Source: a bacterium (GTDB taxonomy: Bacteria > Patescibacteriota > CPR2 > UBA1875 > JAJYID01). Taken from it: 64,000 nt of DNA. How positions within the stretch are numbered: position 1 is the first letter of the stretch; each line of letters starts with the position of its first letter. Location: positions 147,648 through 211,647 of the forward strand of contig JAJYLR010000001.1 of the NCBI GenBank assembly GCA_021787535.1. Reading direction: 5' to 3'. Below the pieces are notes generated by a model. It was not told the origin of the DNA. It made no database searches and worked only from the letters and a program-made list of their open reading frames with translations. The translations under genes were made by a program, and so were the position numbers. Shown here piece by piece: positions 8,285 through 58,353 of the stretch.

Positions 8285-9358
8285 ATGAGTAAAGGAAAAA
8301 TACTTGTAGCAATGTCGGGAGGGGTTGACTCCTCTGTGGCCGCTCATTTGCTCAAAAAAGAGGGTTTTGATTGCATAGGTGTTACCATGAAGCTTTTTTG
8401 TTATGCGGGCACCGAAGCATCGCAACGGTCTTGTTGTTCTCTGGAAGCAATTAATGACGCGAGGGCAGTCTGTAAGAAACTTAGTATTCCTCATTATGTT
8501 ATTGACTTTGAAAAAGAGTTTGAACGGGAAGTTATTAAGGATTTTGTCAGTGAATATGAAAAAGGCAGAACACCAAACCCCTGTATCAGATGCAACCAAT
8601 TGATTAAATTCGATTACCTATTGAAAAAAGCAGAGGAACTTGGATGTGATTATCTTGCCACAGGACACTATGCGCAGATAAATCAGGCAACAAATAACAA
8701 TCAACAAATAACATTTAAGCTGCTCAAGGGAGTTGACAGAGTAAAAGACCAAACTTACTTTTTGTACCGATTGAATCAAAAGCAGCTTTCAAAGCTAAAA
8801 TTTCCATTAGGCGGGCTAACAAAGAAAGAGGTTCGCAGAATTGCCGGGGAAGCGGGCCTAAAGACAGCCGAAAAAGCAGAAAGCCAGGAAATCTGTTTCA
8901 TTGATACAAATGTCTCAGAATTTCTCTCAGGAAAAATTAAAATAGAAAAAGGGGATATTTTAGATACTTCCGGCAAAAAGGTCGGGGAACATGAAGGGAT
9001 CCCATTCTACACAATCGGCCAAAGGAAAGGCCTTGGCGGAGGTTTTGCTCATCCAGTGTATGCGGTCGGGATTGATGTTGAGAAAAATCAAGTTATTGTC
9101 GGCGAAGACATAGATTTATATAAGAAAGAAGTTGTGTTTGATAAGACAAGCTGGATAGCTGGTCAGGTGCCGGCTAGCAAGGATTTGTCTGCTGTAATCC
9201 GTTATAACATGGCAGGAAAAGGAGTTGCGGAATTACAGCGGATTAAAGGTTTATATAAAGCTATTTTTAAAGAAAGAGTGCGAGCCGTTACTCCCGGCCA
9301 ATCAATTGTTTTCTATTCGGGCGATGAATGTCTCGGTGGCGGTGTCATTACCAAATAA
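8285..9358 (+). CDS. mnmA: tRNA-specific 2-thiouridylase MnmA
   Basis: PP-loop SGGVDSSVAA, CxxC Cys pairs, full-length 357 aa MnmA architecture. Confidence 0.88.
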   Translation: MSKGKILVAMSGGVDSSVAAHLLKKEGFDCIGVTMKLFCYAGTEASQRSCCSLEAINDARAVCKKLSIPHYVIDFEKEFEREVIKDFVSEYEKGRTPNPCIRCNQLIKFDYLLKKAEELGCDYLATGHYAQINQATNNNQQITFKLLKGVDRVKDQTYFLYRLNQKQLSKLKFPLGGLTKKEVRRIAGEAGLKTAEKAESQEICFIDTNVSEFLSGKIKIEKGDILDTSGKKVGEHEGIPFYTIGQRKGLGGGFAHPVYAVGIDVEKNQVIVGEDIDLYKKEVVFDKTSWIAGQVPASKDLSAVIRYNMAGKGVAELQRIKGLYKAIFKERVRAVTPGQSIVFYSGDECLGGGVITK

Positions 9359-9420
9359 GCTTGACGCAGAACAATATCTATGGTAGACTACTTGTCCCTT
9401 TCGGATACGTGCTGGAGGAG

Positions 9421-9696
9421 GTGAAACACTTGTCAGCTGGACTTCAGGATAAAAGAGATGATCAAGATGAAAGAAGTACAAAGCTAGTTGAGTATATCAA
9501 ACTAGTGAAAGGAGCAGTTTGGGAGACCAGGGGCGACAGATACGCAGAAAAAAACTCGGAGTCGGCCAAAAAAGCGAAGAAAATTGCGCTTGATCTCATG
9601 ATAGGCCTTGAGGAGACAGAGCGAAAAGCTTTAACCCAAGAGTTAAACAGCGTCTGGGAGGCCGCTATACATGCATATAAAGCACGTAAAAACTAA
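9421..9696 (+). CDS. hypothetical small protein
   Basis: ORF with GGAGGAGGTG RBS immediately before GTG 9421; no recognisable domain. Confidence 0.3.
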   Translation: MKHLSAGLQDKRDDQDERSTKLVEYIKLVKGAVWETRGDRYAEKNSESAKKAKKIALDLMIGLEETERKALTQELNSVWEAAIHAYKARKN

Positions 9697-54108: not shown

Positions 54109-54579
54109 TTACGGTGCAGATACCGTCTCTATGCAGCTGCTGCCTGTGTAATCATGAGTACAGATTTGATATCTGGACTCTTCTAAATACATTAATCTTC
54201 CACTGCAGCCATTATTAGGATCGCTGCAGTCCGATGATACAGTTGGAGTTTTGGATAATCCGCATGAAATACCATCGCTTGCCAGTTCTTGAGCTACATC
54301 ATTGATCACTACGCCGTTTGTCCCATAATGGCCTGTACCCGGATTGGCGGGATAGCAAAGAGTGTTTTGAGTTTGACCGCAATATACCTTATTTCTTGCT
54401 AAATATGCTTCTAGGCATGTTTCCATCTTTTTGACATTTGACCTGTTAGTTGTTTCAGTTGCCATATGTTGCGCAATCTTTATGGCATTTACAAGAACAG
54501 CAAAAAGAACAGCGATGATTGTCATAACAACCATTATCTCGATTAATGTAAAGCCCTTGTTTTGATTAATTTTATGCAC
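54109..54579 (-). CDS. type IV pilin-like (prepilin N-terminal methylation domain) protein
   Basis: KGFTLIEIMVVMTIIAVL class III signal/N-methyl-Phe motif at N-terminus. Confidence 0.7.
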   Translation of the reverse strand: MHKINQNKGFTLIEIMVVMTIIAVLFAVLVNAIKIAQHMATETTNRSNVKKMETCLEAYLARNKVYCGQTQNTLCYPANPGTGHYGTNGVVINDVAQELASDGISCGLSKTPTVSSDCSDPNNGCSGRLMYLEESRYQICTHDYTGSSCIETVSAP

Positions 54580-54754: not shown

Positions 54755-54843
54755 GCTGCGGTGGCGGAATTGGTAGACGCGCTGGCTTGAGGGGCCAGTG
54801 GCCCGAAACGGCCGTGGAGGTTCAAGTCCTCTCCGCAGCACCA
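54755..54843 (+). tRNA. tRNA-Leu (anticodon GAG)
   Basis: hand-folded cloverleaf: acceptor GCTGCGG/CCGCAGC, anticodon loop TTGAGGG, long variable arm, GGTTCAAGTCC T-arm, encoded CCA. Confidence 0.85.
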
Positions 54844-54989
54844 AAAACTAAATACCCTCACAGGGTTTTTAGTTTTGGGTAATGCTGAGGTGGTGAGAAT
54901 CTTCTGTAGACGCCCAGAAAAATCATAAACAATGTTACAAGACTTTCAATGAGATTGATGTGAGTTTATTAGAGAATTAAACTCAAAGG

Positions 54990-55084
54990 CGGCGAGCCGC
55001 TTCAAGTCCTCGCAGCAAGCACCAAACTTCGCTCTGAATTTTTCAGAACTACGCTTGGCAGGCCAACGAAGTTATTTGCAAGGT
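54990..55084 (+). repeat. ~95-bp direct repeat copy A: tRNA-Leu 3'-half-like fragment (TTCAAGTCCTCGCAGCAAGCACCA) plus ~70-nt hairpin-rich tail
   Basis: near-identical to copy B at 56955-57047; compensatory changes in internal hairpin. Confidence 0.7.
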
Positions 55085-55147
55085 GAGAAACACAGAATAG
55101 AATAGAATTTTAATGAAGCCGAGAGGGCTTTTTTTGACGCTTTCTAA

Positions 55148-56035
55148 TCAATACCTTTGCAACACCTGAGCTGGTGTTTTAAGGCCAATGCCCAGATGCC
55201 TCCTTTCATTGTTGTAGTAATCCAGATAGCTTTTAATCCTTGCTTCAATTCCTTTCTCCAGCCATAGCTTTTCACATTCTTCCTGAATGGTTCTATTGAA
55301 TCTTTCAATGTGAGCATTATCATTTGGTTTTCTGACTCTGGAATGTCTGAGTTTTGTTCCTTTGTAGCCAAGCATGTCAGAAAACCATTTGCCAAATTCA
55401 GGTCCGTTATCTGTTTGGACTGTTTTAAATCTAAATCCTGCTAGTTTCTGTGCTTTTAAGACAAACTTCAAGCTGTTGGTTTGAGAAAACCTCTCAGTAT
55501 ATTCCGCATAAGCAAATCTTGAGTAAAGATCGATTAATGTATAGACATAATATCTAGTTCCATCATCTCTAACAAAGTGAATGGTGTCTAACTGAACCAA
55601 GTCACCCGGTTGAAAGACAAAAGGCCTGGGAATATGCGGCCTGAAGCGTTTCCACTTTGATTTTTCTCTGATCAATCCCTGTCTTTTAAGGGTTCTTTTC
55701 ACTGAGGATAAACTAACTTTAATATCTCTTTCCTTTAAATCCTCGTAGATCACTTCAGCGCATCTGTTGTGTTTTAATCTTTCTTCTCTGATTGCCTCAA
55801 TAATATCCTGGGGCAGTTCTTTCGGATGATGGTGAGGTCTTGAGCTTCTGGTTTGAAGATGAGCGTTTAATGAAAGATATTCCTCCCTATATCTTTTTGC
55901 CCATCTTGAAACAGAAGAGTAGGAATATCCAAAGTGACGGGCTACCTGCCTGGTTGAATATCCTTGCTTTAACATTCTGACAGCTTGCAATCTAACCTTT
56001 GGCATATTGGGATTTTTTGTGTATGACATACTCAT
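55148..56035 (-). CDS. DDE transposase (rve/integrase core, IS481/IS3 superfamily) with N-terminal HTH
   Basis: HTH QVARHFGYSYSSVSRWAKRY; DDE residues in VQLDTIHF, VQTDNGPEF, HIERFNRTIQEE. Confidence 0.8.
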   Translation of the reverse strand: MSMSYTKNPNMPKVRLQAVRMLKQGYSTRQVARHFGYSYSSVSRWAKRYREEYLSLNAHLQTRSSRPHHHPKELPQDIIEAIREERLKHNRCAEVIYEDLKERDIKVSLSSVKRTLKRQGLIREKSKWKRFRPHIPRPFVFQPGDLVQLDTIHFVRDDGTRYYVYTLIDLYSRFAYAEYTERFSQTNSLKFVLKAQKLAGFRFKTVQTDNGPEFGKWFSDMLGYKGTKLRHSRVRKPNDNAHIERFNRTIQEECEKLWLEKGIEARIKSYLDYYNNERRHLGIGLKTPAQVLQRY

Positions 56036-56067
56036 AATTTTAATGCAAAGTGTTGCAAAGGTATTGA
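55148..56067 (-). mobile_element. IS481-like insertion sequence (~920 bp) with 18-bp terminal inverted repeats TCAATACCTTTGCAACAC
   Basis: IRs at 55148-55165 and 56050-56067 (reverse complement) bracketing single transposase ORF. Confidence 0.75.
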
Positions 56068-56156
56068 ACCATTACGTTTTGATTGACAGATATAAACTTT
56101 TATGGTACTTTATTAATCATAACTTTTGTTGCCTAGGAATATTTATCTGAAAAGGA

Positions 56157-56384
56157 GTGATGGTAGTGATGGTAATGAAGAAAGGAACGAAGGTGGTAAC
56201 ATTTTTCAAAGAGGAGGATCTGAGCGAGATGAGAGACGCCGGTCTCACTGATGGTATGAAAGGAGTGATCATCAGTGACCCGATACCTGCCCATAAAGGG
56301 AGCTCATTTCGTGTTCGTTGCGAGAATGGGATCGAAATAAAGCTTCATGAATCTCACTTGCAGCTAACATCAGCGGACGGGTAG
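56157..56384 (+). CDS. hypothetical 75-aa protein
   Basis: GGAGTG RBS; ends exactly at tRNA-Val start. Confidence 0.25.
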   Translation: MMVVMVMKKGTKVVTFFKEEDLSEMRDAGLTDGMKGVIISDPIPAHKGSSFRVRCENGIEIKLHESHLQLTSADG

Positions 56385-56461
56385 CTTAACTGGCTAAAGT
56401 GCCGGCTCGACATGCCGGAAATTGAAGGTTCAAATCCTTTCCCGTCCGCCAACATTTGAGG
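56385..56461 (+). tRNA. tRNA-Val (anticodon GAC; unusual C33)
   Basis: hand-folded: acceptor GGACGGG/CCCGTCC, anticodon stem CCGGC/GCCGG loop TCGACAT, T-arm GAAGGTTCAAATCCTTT, encoded CCA. Confidence 0.7.
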
Positions 56462-56485
56462 GGATTTATCCTCTCTTGCAGAGAC

Positions 56486-56560
56486 TGCTCCAGTAGCTTA
56501 ACTGGTAAAACGTCGGGTCGTTATTTGAAGGTTACCAGTTCAAATCTTACCTTGGGCAGG
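56486..56560 (+). pseudogene. degenerate tRNA-like duplicate (pseudo-tRNA)
   Basis: shares GTAGCTTAACTGG.TAAA and GAAGGTT...CAAATC with adjacent tRNA-Val but T-arm and anticodon stem do not pair; 7-nt ACCAGTT insertion. Confidence 0.3.
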
Positions 56561-56645
56561 CAATTTATCTGGGCGTCCGCGAATCTTGGGCGCCCATTTT
56601 TCTTTTACAAATTCAGATCTTATAGTATAATATTTCAGTATTTTT

Positions 56646-56722
56646 GGGCGCTTAGCTCAGCTGGCTAGAGCGACTGGTTTACACCCAGTAGGTCGAGGGT
56701 TCGAGTCCCCCAGCGCCCACCA
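56646..56722 (+). tRNA. tRNA-Val (anticodon TAC)
   Basis: acceptor GGGCGCT/AGCGCCC, D-arm GCTCAGCTGGCTAGAGC, anticodon loop TTTACAC, T-loop TTCGAGT, CCA. Confidence 0.85.
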
Positions 56723-56750
56723 TAGAAAATTTCGCTGAAAATATTGAAAA

Positions 56751-56837
56751 GCCGCGGTGGCGGAACTGGTAGACGCGCTGGCTTCAGGTGCCAGTGAAAG
56801 CAATTTCGTGGAGGTTCGAGTCCTCTCCGCGGCACCA
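56751..56837 (+). tRNA. tRNA-Leu (anticodon CAG)
   Basis: acceptor GCCGCGG/CCGCGGC, anticodon loop TTCAGGT, long variable arm, CCA; paralogous to tRNA-Leu(GAG) at 54755. Confidence 0.85.
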
Positions 56838-56954
56838 ATGAAATTGTTTAGCAAGGAGAGACGAGAACCTCCTGAAAAACGCTTTAAGTTTCAGGTATTG
56901 AAAATGGTAAAATTTAGCATGTAAGAAAGGTGCTATAAAAAAGAAATGAAAAGT

Positions 56955-57047
56955 GGTTGAACCGCTTCGAGTCCTCGCAGTAAGCACCAAACCTCGCTCT
57001 GGTTTTTTCAGAGCTACGCTTGGCAGGCCAACGAAGTTGTTTGTAAG
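56955..57047 (+). repeat. ~95-bp direct repeat copy B (tRNA-Leu 3'-half-like fragment plus structured tail); partial third copy at 57152-57187
   Basis: aligns to copy A with covarying hairpin stems. Confidence 0.7.
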
Positions 57048-57204
57048 GAGGTGGCAAGAACCTCCTGAAACTGCCCAAATGAAACAAAAATCATATAAAA
57101 AAAGAAAATTTATTTTGTAAGATAACCTTTTAGAAAAGTAAAATAAAAAGTAGTGGTGCTTTTCAAGTACTCGCAGCTAGCACTATATTAAAAAAGAATC
57201 TGAT

Positions 57205-58353
57205 ATGCAAAAACCAAATTACAAAGGCGGCAGTATTGTCAATCTAATGAGTTCTATTAAAAGATCATTTGGCGGATCATCTGAGTATGAGCCGCTAGCC
57301 GGTTTTGACATTTCAGAAATCGCCCAAAAAACAGTTGTCCTAATAGTTATAGACGGACTTGGTTATGAATTTATTAAAAAATACGGCAGTGAGAGTTTCC
57401 TTAGTAAAAACTTAAAAGGTAATATTACATCGGTTTTCCCTGCCACGACGGCTTCAGCTATGACCGCTTTTTCAACCGGTGTTCCTGCGCAGCAGCACGG
57501 ACTCACAGGATGGTTTGTTTATTTAAAGGAACTCGGCGCAGTCACTACAGTGCTGCCTTTTAAAACGCGTGCCGGAGATCTAAGTTTATCCCAGGGGAAT
57601 ATAAACTATGGAGACATTTTTTCTCAAAAAAGTTTTTTTGAAGAATTAGACGTACCATCTTTTTACATCGGCAGTGAAAAATATGTAGATTCTGATTACT
57701 CGCGCTTCGCACACGAAGGGGCTAAAAGAGTTCCCTTTTCTTCACTTGAAAACTTCTCGCAGCAAATCAGTAAGCTCATCTCTGACGGCCAAAGACAATA
57801 CGCTCTGGCTTATTGGGACGGTTTTGATATGTTAAGCCATGTCCATGGAAATAACAGCCAAGAAGTGAGAAACCATTTTAAAATGATCGATCAGGAGATT
57901 GAATCCCTGTCAAAAAATCTAAAAGAGAAAAATGCTGTACTGATTATAAGCGCTGATCACGGTTTTATAGATACTGAGATGAAAGATGTCATTCATCTTG
58001 CAGATCATCCAAAGCTTCAAAAAACTTTAGCACTCCCTCTTGCCGGAGATTCCAGAGCTGTTTACTGTTATGTCAAACCGGGGAAAACCAAAGATTTTGA
58101 GAATTATGTCAAAATGGTTTTAGGAGATTATTGCCATCTCTATAAAAGCAAGGATCTTTTTGAAAAAGGATTTTTTGGCTTGTTTGAGCCGCATAAAGAG
58201 CTAATGGATCGTATCGGAGATTACACCCTCATAATGAAGAAAAACTATATTATGAAAGACGAAGTTCTGGGAGAAGAAAGACATAACTTTATCGGCCACC
58301 ACAGCGGAATGAGCAAAGAAGAGATGTTTGTTCCTCTAATCGTGGTAGAATAG
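57205..58353 (+). CDS. alkaline-phosphatase-superfamily protein (nucleotide pyrophosphatase/phosphodiesterase- or phosphomutase-like)
   Basis: VLIVIDGLGYEF...SVFPATTASAMTAFSTG metal-binding core motifs. Confidence 0.55.
   Translation: MQKPNYKGGSIVNLMSSIKRSFGGSSEYEPLAGFDISEIAQKTVVLIVIDGLGYEFIKKYGSESFLSKNLKGNITSVFPATTASAMTAFSTGVPAQQHGLTGWFVYLKELGAVTTVLPFKTRAGDLSLSQGNINYGDIFSQKSFFEELDVPSFYIGSEKYVDSDYSRFAHEGAKRVPFSSLENFSQQISKLISDGQRQYALAYWDGFDMLSHVHGNNSQEVRNHFKMIDQEIESLSKNLKEKNAVLIISADHGFIDTEMKDVIHLADHPKLQKTLALPLAGDSRAVYCYVKPGKTKDFENYVKMVLGDYCHLYKSKDLFEKGFFGLFEPHKELMDRIGDYTLIMKKNYIMKDEVLGEERHNFIGHHSGMSKEEMFVPLIVVE

Follow-up and report, generated by a model that had tools for sequence, protein, structure and literature searches.

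Two near-identical direct repeats, each beginning with what resembles the end of a tRNA-Leu gene, lie 2 kb apart in a 64,000-nt stretch of DNA (hereafter the window) from a bacterium of the GTDB lineage Patescibacteriota; CPR2; UBA1875; JAJYID01 (GenBank assembly GCA_021787535.1, contig JAJYLR010000001.1, positions 147,648 to 211,647 of the forward strand). The question that this locus (positions 54,755 to 57,204 of the window) raises is whether the repeats are the two ends of a single integrated element, as the original prediction, made from the sequence alone, had considered. Comparison with related genomes indicates otherwise: the left repeat, R1, closes a small module (the X unit) that trails tRNA-Leu(GAG), and the right repeat, R2, a second X unit that was inserted past tRNA-Leu(CAG). 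The X units constitute a clade-specific family of small tRNA-Leu-linked modules that end in copies of tRNA ends, a variant of the known att-repeat theme. As to their origin, we favor, with a probability of roughly 0.55, the view that they would be att-type duplications left by insertion into the 3' end of tRNA-Leu genes, cut down to miniature modules that lack an integrase and reassorted by recombination.

R1 (54985-55083) and R2 (56950-57048) are 87% identical over 99 nt at a spacing of 1965 nt, with 90.8% identity in the last 87 nt and divergence in the first 12 nt, and a partial third copy (R3) lies at 57146-57185; in number and kind, the repeats are thus as originally predicted. The head motif TTCRAGTMCTCGCAGYWAGCAC occurs three times in the 64 kb (at 55001, 56966 and 57162), a count that no shuffle reached, and the invariant tail 25-mer CTACGCTTGGCAGGCCAACGAAGTT exactly twice, with no occurrence in shuffles. 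The composition of the repeats had to be revised. Instead of a head followed by a single tail of ~70 nt, each consists of a segment F (40 nt), a segment T2 (41 nt) and the first 18 nt of another module, T1. F comprises an A-run, a hairpin and a 24-nt look-alike of a tRNA-Leu end reaching from the T loop to CCA. The heads had been taken for T-arm and acceptor fragments of tRNA-Leu, and it holds that they correspond to a T-loop-to-CCA copy; however, the copy in the window is a 24-nt variant (...CTCGCAGCWAGCACCA), whereas a true T-loop-to-CCA end has 23 nt, and it cannot fold into a T arm because the 5' strand of the T stem is missing. This variant is ~75-80% like the end of tRNA-Leu(GAG), corresponds to no real tRNA end and is seen at three kinds of locus.

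Nor could we substantiate the structured, multi-hairpin nature once ascribed to the tail. The folding energies of R1 and R2 are no better than those of shuffled sequences (z −0.39 and 0.02), and the supposedly compensatory changes (TCTGAA/TTCAGA versus CTCTG/CAGAG) amount to a register shift of the stem with one-sided changes. The covariance models of Rfam 15 recover only four tRNAs at threshold and nothing on R1, R2 or R3 at E ≤ 10, and the tRNA covariance model finds no match on the units at E ≤ 10. Neither ARAGORN nor Rfam reports a transfer-messenger RNA (tmRNA), and a permuted (two-piece) tmRNA was dropped. Two further candidate identities of F were rejected, namely an attC-like site, for its wrong geometry, and an intrinsic terminator, for want of a U run. 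T2 shows a 7-nt inverted match with its flank (AACTTCG/CGAAGTT) and has CCAA on both sides.

To place the repeats in their genomic context, we relied on loci from related genomes, mostly metagenome-assembled genomes (MAGs) of Patescibacteria, which carry L-numbers here; scanning the species genomes of GTDB for the 3' end of tRNA-Leu yielded 25 loci. The closest relative is represented by L042 for the Leu(GAG) side and by L004, from an ENA metagenome, for the Leu(CAG) side, the two lying on different contigs of the same sample. L042 has the orthologue of the SBP gene followed by tRNA-Leu(GAG) and is collinear with the window (85% identity in trailer plus spacer; values for the tRNA and for hairpin plus F are in Table 1); it carries an R1 orthologue that has neither T2 nor the IS481-like insertion sequence (IS) of the window. 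The more distant L044 (SBP 60% identical) likewise has a unit past tRNA-Leu(GAG) that lacks T2, and against both relatives the window shows one clean 42-nt insertion, T2, between F1 and the start of T1. L042 continues through the same terminator to a conserved promoter and tRNA-Val(TAC), and then to tRNA-Phe, tRNA-Gly, tRNA-Cys and tRNA-Leu(TAA); to the right of tRNA-Val(TAC), the window goes on with the Leu(CAG)-AlkP-mscL locus. In relatives this latter locus is preceded by PucR-like regulators, which are absent from the window, and by tRNA-Val(GAC); L004, L020 and L009 have tRNA-Leu(CAG), F3 and the AlkP gene together in a separate, conserved locus. In L004, whose proteins are 68-88% identical to those of the window (AlkP 81%) with synteny from the AlkP gene onward, the order is tRNA-Val(GAC), tRNA-Leu(CAG), a trailer, an F-like fragment and the AlkP gene. 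Since this trailer aligns to window position 57031 onward, that is, to the sequence past R2, and F3 is present but R2 is not, window positions 56838-57030 (193 bp, comprising unit A and T2 copy 2 and thereby holding R2) are an insertion directly 3' of the CCA of tRNA-Leu(CAG).

It follows from the synteny with L042 and L004 that R1 and R2 are the tails of two resident tRNA-Leu loci brought within 2 kb of each other by rearrangement. The two loci are adjacent only by virtue of lineage-specific events, a synteny break by tRNA-Val(TAC) and an insertion of ~1.45 kb; altogether, the window carries the 42-nt T2 insertion, the 193-bp unit insertion, the ~1.45-kb insertion containing the IS, and one rearrangement. 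The unit that ends in F3 (unit B), formerly the "partial third repeat", is the ancestral X unit of tRNA-Leu(CAG). That R1 and R2 could instead be attL and attR of one decayed islet, with the IS, ORF75, two tRNA-Val, the pseudo-tRNA and tRNA-Leu(CAG) as its contents, is suggested by the arrangement of two 87%-identical direct repeats with tRNA-like heads around this interval. We consider it highly improbable, because neither repeat belongs to an intact tRNA, the R1 orthologue in L042 adjoins tRNA-Val(TAC) with no IS, tRNA-Val(TAC) and its promoter are orthologous and hence resident, the Leu(CAG) part is a conserved locus of its own, and R2 is missing from L004 as part of the 193-bp indel. The islet of the original prediction is therefore abandoned, and with it the notion that the duplicated tRNA ends are islet ends; that they are copies of the kind left by insertion at tRNA genes stands, given a match of 23/23 in two relatives. 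Filled and empty sites do occur, but for the small units and not for the R1-R2 interval. For annotation, this implies that paired tRNA-tail repeats need not delimit an island and may belong to two tRNA genes joined by rearrangement.

The X unit (~155 nt) is composed of T1, an A-rich spacer, a hairpin and F, the copy of a tRNA 3' end. At least six related Patescibacteria genomes have X units downstream of tRNA-Leu(CAG/TAG/GAG) genes, and the tRNA genes concerned share the 3' end ...GTCCTCTCCGC(A/G)GCACCA. Seven units, each consisting of a CCA and then T1, spacer, hairpin and F, align end to end over ~155 nt. A profile trained on these seven matches the window Leu(GAG) unit and unit A by construction, both being in the training set; independent support for the former comes from its collinearity with L042 (85-90% identical) and with L044. 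Outside the training set, the profile matched L042 (E 5e-19), L044 (1.5e-15) and, partially, L028 (2.7e-13), all adjoining tRNA-Leu(NAG), and nothing further in the 387 kb of window and fetched loci that were searched. T1 is a conserved trailer of ~45 nt (consensus ACGAAGTTGTTTGCAAGGAGGTGGCGAGAACCTCCTGAAACTGCC) that always starts immediately past a CCA, as it does directly 3' of the tRNA-Leu CCA in L013, L020/L004, L022, L024, L028 and L044. It occurs in two subtypes, ...GGAGGTGGCGAGAAC... and ...GAGAGACGAGAAC..., both of which L022 has, as does the window in its units B and A. As a separate observation, subtype a at 57047-57067 (also in L004, L024 and L028) reads AGGAGGT-GGCGAGA-ACCTCCT, a hairpin resembling a Shine-Dalgarno/anti-Shine-Dalgarno pair; subtype b and L022 no longer have the pairing but retain the GAACCTCC sequence.

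The F copies of relatives lie 100-130 nt downstream of the tRNA and likewise consist of an A-run, a hairpin and a copy whose start is the initial T of the T loop. F equals the end of the adjacent tRNA-Leu at 23 of 23 positions in L013 and L024, where identity begins exactly at T54. The hairpin abuts this core in 9/9 units, with 96.7% of cells paired as opposed to 28-57% with slid partners; two of its pairs show double changes, and the shuffle control is not significant (47/500). The T2 profile, the training set of which includes both window copies so that these match by construction, finds the window (twice), L017 and, weakly, L010, and only these: in L017, T2 follows the CCA of tRNA-Leu(TAG) (AACTTCGCTCC-AAAA-GGAGCTACGCTTGGCAAGCCA), and L010 has a weaker, T2-like version past tRNA-Leu(GAG). 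The search for the tail elsewhere thus recovered it in these two relatives; the exact 25-mer gave 0 matches in GTDB genomes, and no Rfam family corresponds to the tail. A T1 pattern gave 0 matches in JGI metagenomes, where the tRNA-Leu end was found at 7 loci, none with X units.

Three other interpretations of the unit were rejected. The whole unit might have been a decayed tandem tRNA-Leu, with GGTGGCGAGAAC resembling GGTGGCGGAAC; pairwise alignment of its upstream part with tRNA-Leu gave p values of 0.03-0.8, and a profile search could not tell real tRNA 5' parts from shuffles, in that no real tRNA outscored 3000 shuffled sequences. T1 is not considered coding despite a through-running open frame, in view of a 1-nt indel in L024, differing stops and no clear synonymous excess. 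Finally, acceptor-stem pairing between T1 and F (GTTTGC/GCAAGC), assessed by eye, is possible in some units; an A-to-T change in F is uncompensated and the F-a units are unpairable.

The distribution of units is specific and at the same time fluid. Empty Leu(CAG) sites exist in L012, L032 and L033/L041. In the window genome, tRNA-Leu(TAG) (L046) differs in its T arm (GGGAG/CTCCC) and is followed by no unit, as is also the case in L047 and L048, and tRNA-Leu(TAA) of L042, with another 3' end, has no unit either. At the orthologous Leu(TAG)-deaminase locus, L022 has T1-type units and L017 has T2 plus a disrupted F. Unit B of the window is 80% identical, spacer included, to the unit of L022, which sits at the non-orthologous Leu(TAG) locus of a genome whose deaminase is 60% identical to that of the window genome, yet only 74% identical to its positional orthologue in L004. 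The original prediction had allowed for generic terminator modules downstream of tRNAs: the modules do recur downstream of tRNAs in related genomes, but only past tRNA-Leu(NAG) genes that have a 3' end in common, and none of them is a terminator. It had also envisaged serial tail duplications that seeded new tRNA paralogs; serial accumulation is indeed seen, with no evidence that the copies seeded paralogs.

How could such units have come about? In the scheme that we favor, a Campbell-type crossover at the T loop, inserting DNA into the 3' end of tRNA-Leu, would have duplicated the T-loop-to-CCA core. The units would then have persisted as integrase-less miniature modules similar to cis-mobilizable elements (CIMEs), or as minimal att-bearing modules, and recombination between repeated cores and trailers (unequal crossover or gene conversion) would add, delete, stack and copy units and T2. 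Homologous recombination would in this way have copied T2 among tRNA-Leu loci, thus explaining why it sits at the same F/T1 junction twice, and the sharper identity of R1 and R2 around T2 fits a conversion tract. The architecture bears the marks of Campbell-type insertion: a core with a fixed left edge, a conserved foreign motif by the distal core and conserved sequence by the proximal core, and further sites both filled and empty, stacking in tandem and confinement to a single core sequence. The core repeat is matched by the intact adjacent gene copy in L013 and L024, as att repeats require, and, as expected of CIMEs, core repeats are kept in units that are free of genes.

Several findings weigh against such an origin. 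No integrase or recombinase gene is present in or beside any unit, as the original prediction had already stated for the locus; no unit contains an open reading frame (ORF), and the only recombinase-like gene nearby is the IS transposase. A full-length element (T1, genes, hairpin and F) is present in none of the fetched loci. T2, T1, F and the tRNA-Leu end each gave 0 matches in IMG/VR viral contigs, and BLAST of units A and B against phage records gave no match. The independent X units sampled number only about ten. Three genomes retain the Leu(GAG) unit at the orthologous position, and in it T1 and F are more conserved than the spacer, which suits a host function no less than a relic. The window F variant, matching no tRNA end and occurring at three kinds of locus, travels with the unit rather than representing the displaced end of each gene. 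Lastly, if unequal crossover had duplicated the units in tandem, the resulting architecture would be the same.

This last point leads to an account in terms of local duplication only, in which segments of trailer plus 3' end would have been duplicated by replication slippage or unequal crossover involving the 3' end of tRNA-Leu and CCAA microhomology close by. The copies would have decayed and later been exchanged among tRNA-Leu paralogs by gene conversion, with no site-specific recombinase involved at any time. It is possible, though we think it rather less than probable. It would readily explain the head-to-tail arrays of units that each begin past a CCA and end in CCA, the CCAA flanks of both the 193-bp and the 42-nt insertion, the failure to find an integrase near the units, and the conversion-tract-like rise in R1/R2 identity around T2. 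Against it stands the left edge, which is the same in nine of nine units, with a foreign hairpin directly next to T54 and the T stem lacking its 5' strand; an identical edge in nine units points to one defined, att-site-like crossover point. The region upstream of F is without detectable tRNA homology, so the unit is not a decayed tandem tRNA, and near-identical units occur at non-orthologous loci of distant genomes.

Alternatively, the units could be functional trailers of tRNA-Leu maintained by selection, with T1, T2 and F acting in the precursor or in a released 3'-trailer RNA. Candidate roles would be processing, stability, sponge-like or anti-Shine-Dalgarno regulation, or downstream gene expression. 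This proposition is compatible with either origin, and we regard it as unlikely. The window and L044 share 85% identity in the hairpin plus F as against 50% in the spacer, T1 is conserved as well, and the offset of T1 past the CCA is fixed in every case. The terminator scan finds no terminator between tRNA-Leu(CAG) and the AlkP gene, and the promoter scan places a promoter-like site within F3. The T2 hairpins also vary in sequence among genomes (GCTCTG/CAGAGC, GCTCC/GGAGC, TTGG/CCAA, TTAA/TTAA). Set against this are the null results with Rfam and with folding relative to shuffles given above, and the RNAalifold energies: the whole unit reaches -1.8 kcal/mol with an unfavorable covariation term, leaving nearly no consensus structure, F has no convincing one, and T2 attains only -4.5 kcal/mol. 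The T1 hairpin is not kept in subtype b and L022, and units are dispensable, as the empty Leu(CAG) sites in several relatives and the unit-free tRNA-Leu(TAG) of the window genome indicate. The structured-RNA version of the idea is accordingly weak. A known tRNA 3' external transcribed spacer RNA is 3'ETS-leuZ of Escherichia coli. The X units resemble it as conserved sequence immediately 3' of a tRNA-Leu gene that tRNA processing could potentially release; they differ in having no sequence or structural relation to it and in ending in a copy of a tRNA 3' end.

We also contemplated that X (~155 nt) and T2 (41 nt) might be active non-autonomous mobile modules of an undescribed kind, inserting precisely past ...GCACCA, be it that of a tRNA-Leu gene or of a previous copy, and stacking CCA-to-CCA since their own end is CCA too, which seems doubtful. 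In one variant, a trans-acting recombinase would recognize hairpin, core and T1 as a minimal attP; in the other, trailer RNAs ending in CCA would be copied by a reverse transcriptase that switches templates at CCA ends, as the enzyme of the Mauriceville retroplasmid does. Miniature inverted-repeat transposable elements (MITEs) are small non-autonomous transposable elements with terminal inverted repeats. X units share with them small size, lack of coding capacity, multiple copies, presence or absence among relatives, and conserved ends. Unlike MITEs, they show no terminal inverted repeats and occur only past a tRNA-Leu-like ...GCACCA, and the only comparable features of T2, its 7-nt inverted flank match and CCAA repeat, are equally explicable by microhomology.

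Returning to an origin by insertion into the tRNA-Leu 3' end, integration at a tRNA-Leu gene has a familiar precedent in the P4-type phages, which use leuX. The closest parallels to the units are the islands at the tmRNA gene of Dehalococcoides. In these ssrA islands, 20-bp repeats of the 3' end are arranged in tandem, each with a conserved 15-bp motif just upstream; the insertion point lies midway through the T loop, and some islands are integrase-less and viewed as possible CIMEs (PMC3146451). The X units are similar in that a direct repeat from the T loop to the 3' end is stacked downstream of an intact gene, with a conserved element-side motif (here the A-run and hairpin) upstream of each repeat, and in that units without integrase occur. 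They differ from tRNA and tmRNA islands in that X and T2 units are 41-190 nt of non-coding DNA instead of kilobase islands, that no copy has an integration module, that the repeat variant of the window has 24 nt and is like no functional tRNA end, and that the unit is kept at orthologous sites. According to the CIME and accretion concept, a decayed integrative and conjugative element (ICE) or integrative and mobilizable element (IME) can still be mobilized by a related element (PMC5704250). X units likewise keep att-like repeats in tandem arrangement without recombination or transfer genes; they are, however, one to two orders of magnitude smaller, and descent from an ICE or IME and mobilization, which define a CIME, would be putative in their case.

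The mobile DNA and genome plasticity of Patescibacteria, the bacteria of the candidate phyla radiation, are poorly charted. Should X units be miniature elements bounded by att sites, they would mark a hot spot of recombination, and hairpin, core and T1 together would offer a defined query with which to seek the recombinase or parent element that is missing; as functional trailers, they would constitute a lineage-specific feature of tRNA-Leu expression.

The features of the locus are collected in Table 1. ARAGORN and Rfam substantiate the originally predicted gene content, that is, tRNA-Leu(GAG), two tRNA-Val, tRNA-Leu(CAG), the pseudo-tRNA and the 75-aa ORF.

Table 1. Features of the tRNA-Leu locus in window coordinates, with the evidence for each.
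Feature	Position	Strand	Evidence
tRNA-Leu(GAG), owner of module 1	54755-54843	+	ARAGORN; Rfam tRNA 53.9 bits; L042 orthologue 89/90 identical
Terminator-like hairpin and T run directly 3' of tRNA-Leu(GAG)	54854-54876	+	Terminator scan
X unit, Leu(GAG) locus (degenerate T1, spacer, hairpin, F1)	54876-55024	+	Profile E 1.4e-29 (training member)
F1: hairpin and 24-nt tRNA-Leu 3'-end-like copy, head of R1	54985-55024	+	36/40 to L042, 34/40 to L044
T2 copy 1 (41-nt "tail")	55025-55065	+	Clean 42-nt gap in L042 and L044; profile E 6e-12 (training member)
Truncated T1 trailer start, end of R1	55066-55090	+	Aligns with T1 starts in window, L013, L022, L042
Terminator-like hairpin GAAGCCGAGAGGGCTTTTTT	55115-55135	+	Read from sequence; kept in L042; unflagged by terminator scan
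IS481-like insertion sequence, 920 bp; transposase ORF 55148-56035 (-)	55148-56067	-	Perfect 18-bp inverted repeats; rve and LZ_Tnp_IS481 domains
Segment missing from relative L042	56068-56603	+	ORF75, tRNA-Val(GAC), pseudo-tRNA, terminator 56570-56605
ORF75 (75 aa)	56157-56384	+	Open reading frame
tRNA-Val(GAC), G73	56375-56451	+	ARAGORN; Rfam
Pseudo-tRNA	56487-56558	+	17.2 bits vs threshold 29
Promoter-like site (TTTACA-16-TATAAT) and tRNA-Val(TAC), L042 orthologue	56604-56722	+	Promoter 11/12 matches; tRNA 56646-56722
tRNA-Leu(CAG), owner of units A and B	56751-56837	+	ARAGORN; Rfam; 87/87 identical to L004
X unit A: T1 subtype b (56838-56882), spacer, hairpin and F2 (56950-56989, head of R2)	56838-56989	+	Profile E 2.9e-34 (training member)
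T2 copy 2	56990-57030	+	Repeat alignment; T2 profile (training member)
X unit B: T1 subtype a (57031-57075), spacer, hairpin and F3 (57146-57185)	57031-57185	+	Aligns to L004 single unit; 80% identical to L022 unit
AlkP/phosphodiesterase-family gene, context outside module	57205-58353	+	Pfam PF01663; 81% identical to L004 orthologue

The insertion sequence was correctly recognized as IS481-like. Its inverted repeats (55148-55165 and 56050-56067) are perfect, and IS481 is the best family for its 295-aa transposase, with a score (NF033577, 198.8 bits) below the 224-bit cutoff. It has the single DDE (rve) transposase of that family, with N-terminal helix-turn-helix and IS481 leucine-zipper domains, and terminal inverted repeats with the stop codon inside one of them; it differs in being short and in that low score, and no target-site duplication is visible in its flanks (55140-55150 and 56065-56075). 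An exact look-up of the transposase sequence found no further copies on record. Relative to L042, which lacks the IS at the orthologous site, the window has ~1.45 kb of extra DNA, from 55148 to ~56600, comprising the IS, ORF75, tRNA-Val(GAC) and the pseudo-tRNA. Perfect inverted repeats with no target duplication, together with an adjoining foreign segment of 530 bp, suggest an IS-associated rearrangement and not a simple insertion. ORF75 has no match in Pfam, NCBIfam or PHROGs and overlaps the 5' end of tRNA-Val(GAC) by 10 nt; the latter has G73 in place of the usual A73 and is ~65% like the tRNA-Val(GAC) of the relative, and the pseudo-tRNA next to it is its decayed copy.

The hairpin directly 3' of tRNA-Leu(GAG) has an altered loop in L042 and is missing from L044. 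Between the SBP gene and tRNA-Leu(GAG), the window carries a type IV pilin-like gene with an N_methyl motif (54109-54579, minus strand), which the orthologous gap of L042, 58 nt long, does not contain. Located at the synteny break, the spacer of 28 nt that separates tRNA-Val(TAC) from tRNA-Leu(CAG) (56723-56750) starts with TAGAAAATTTCGCTGAAAA, a sequence weakly like the first part of T2 (AAACTTCGCTCTGAA). Judged by its flanking proteins, the window belongs to the Patescibacteria; the AlkP-family gene has homologues in bacteria with names such as Yanofskybacteria, Moranbacteria and Falkowbacteria. The slot bounded by tRNA-Leu(CAG) and mscL varies among the window, L024, L033, L012, L028 and L032, being filled by the AlkP-family gene, by a gene for a 339-aa protein or a 204-aa methyltransferase-like protein, or by nothing, which points to a gene-turnover hot spot just past the last tRNA-end copy.

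A few observations concern other tRNA-associated sequences in the relatives. In L042, two near-identical AT-rich spacers of ~70 nt with an inverted repeat (9290-9365 and 9442-9515) follow tRNA-Val(TAC) and tRNA-Phe and form a separate repeated tRNA-spacer module. L018 (~3840-3700, minus strand) and L038, which has the same sequence, contain a second tRNA-Leu-like gene ~60 nt past tRNA-Leu(CAG); its T loop carries a GC-rich insert of ~46 nt (GGAGGTTC[CCCGGCCC...GGCGCGGCG]AATCCTCT TTTCAGCACCA), and ARAGORN does not call it. L049, of the E14 MAG, has a sequence like tRNA-Leu(TAG) (2870-2965) upstream of its deaminase gene; likewise uncalled, it may be a pseudogene, given its altered anticodon region and T arm and its end CCCCA. 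In L039 (7790-7840), the orphan 3' half of another class II tRNA lies directly past tRNA-Leu(TAG); it has a variable arm, its T arm (GGGGG/CCCCC) is intact, and its acceptor end reads CTCTGGCACCA.

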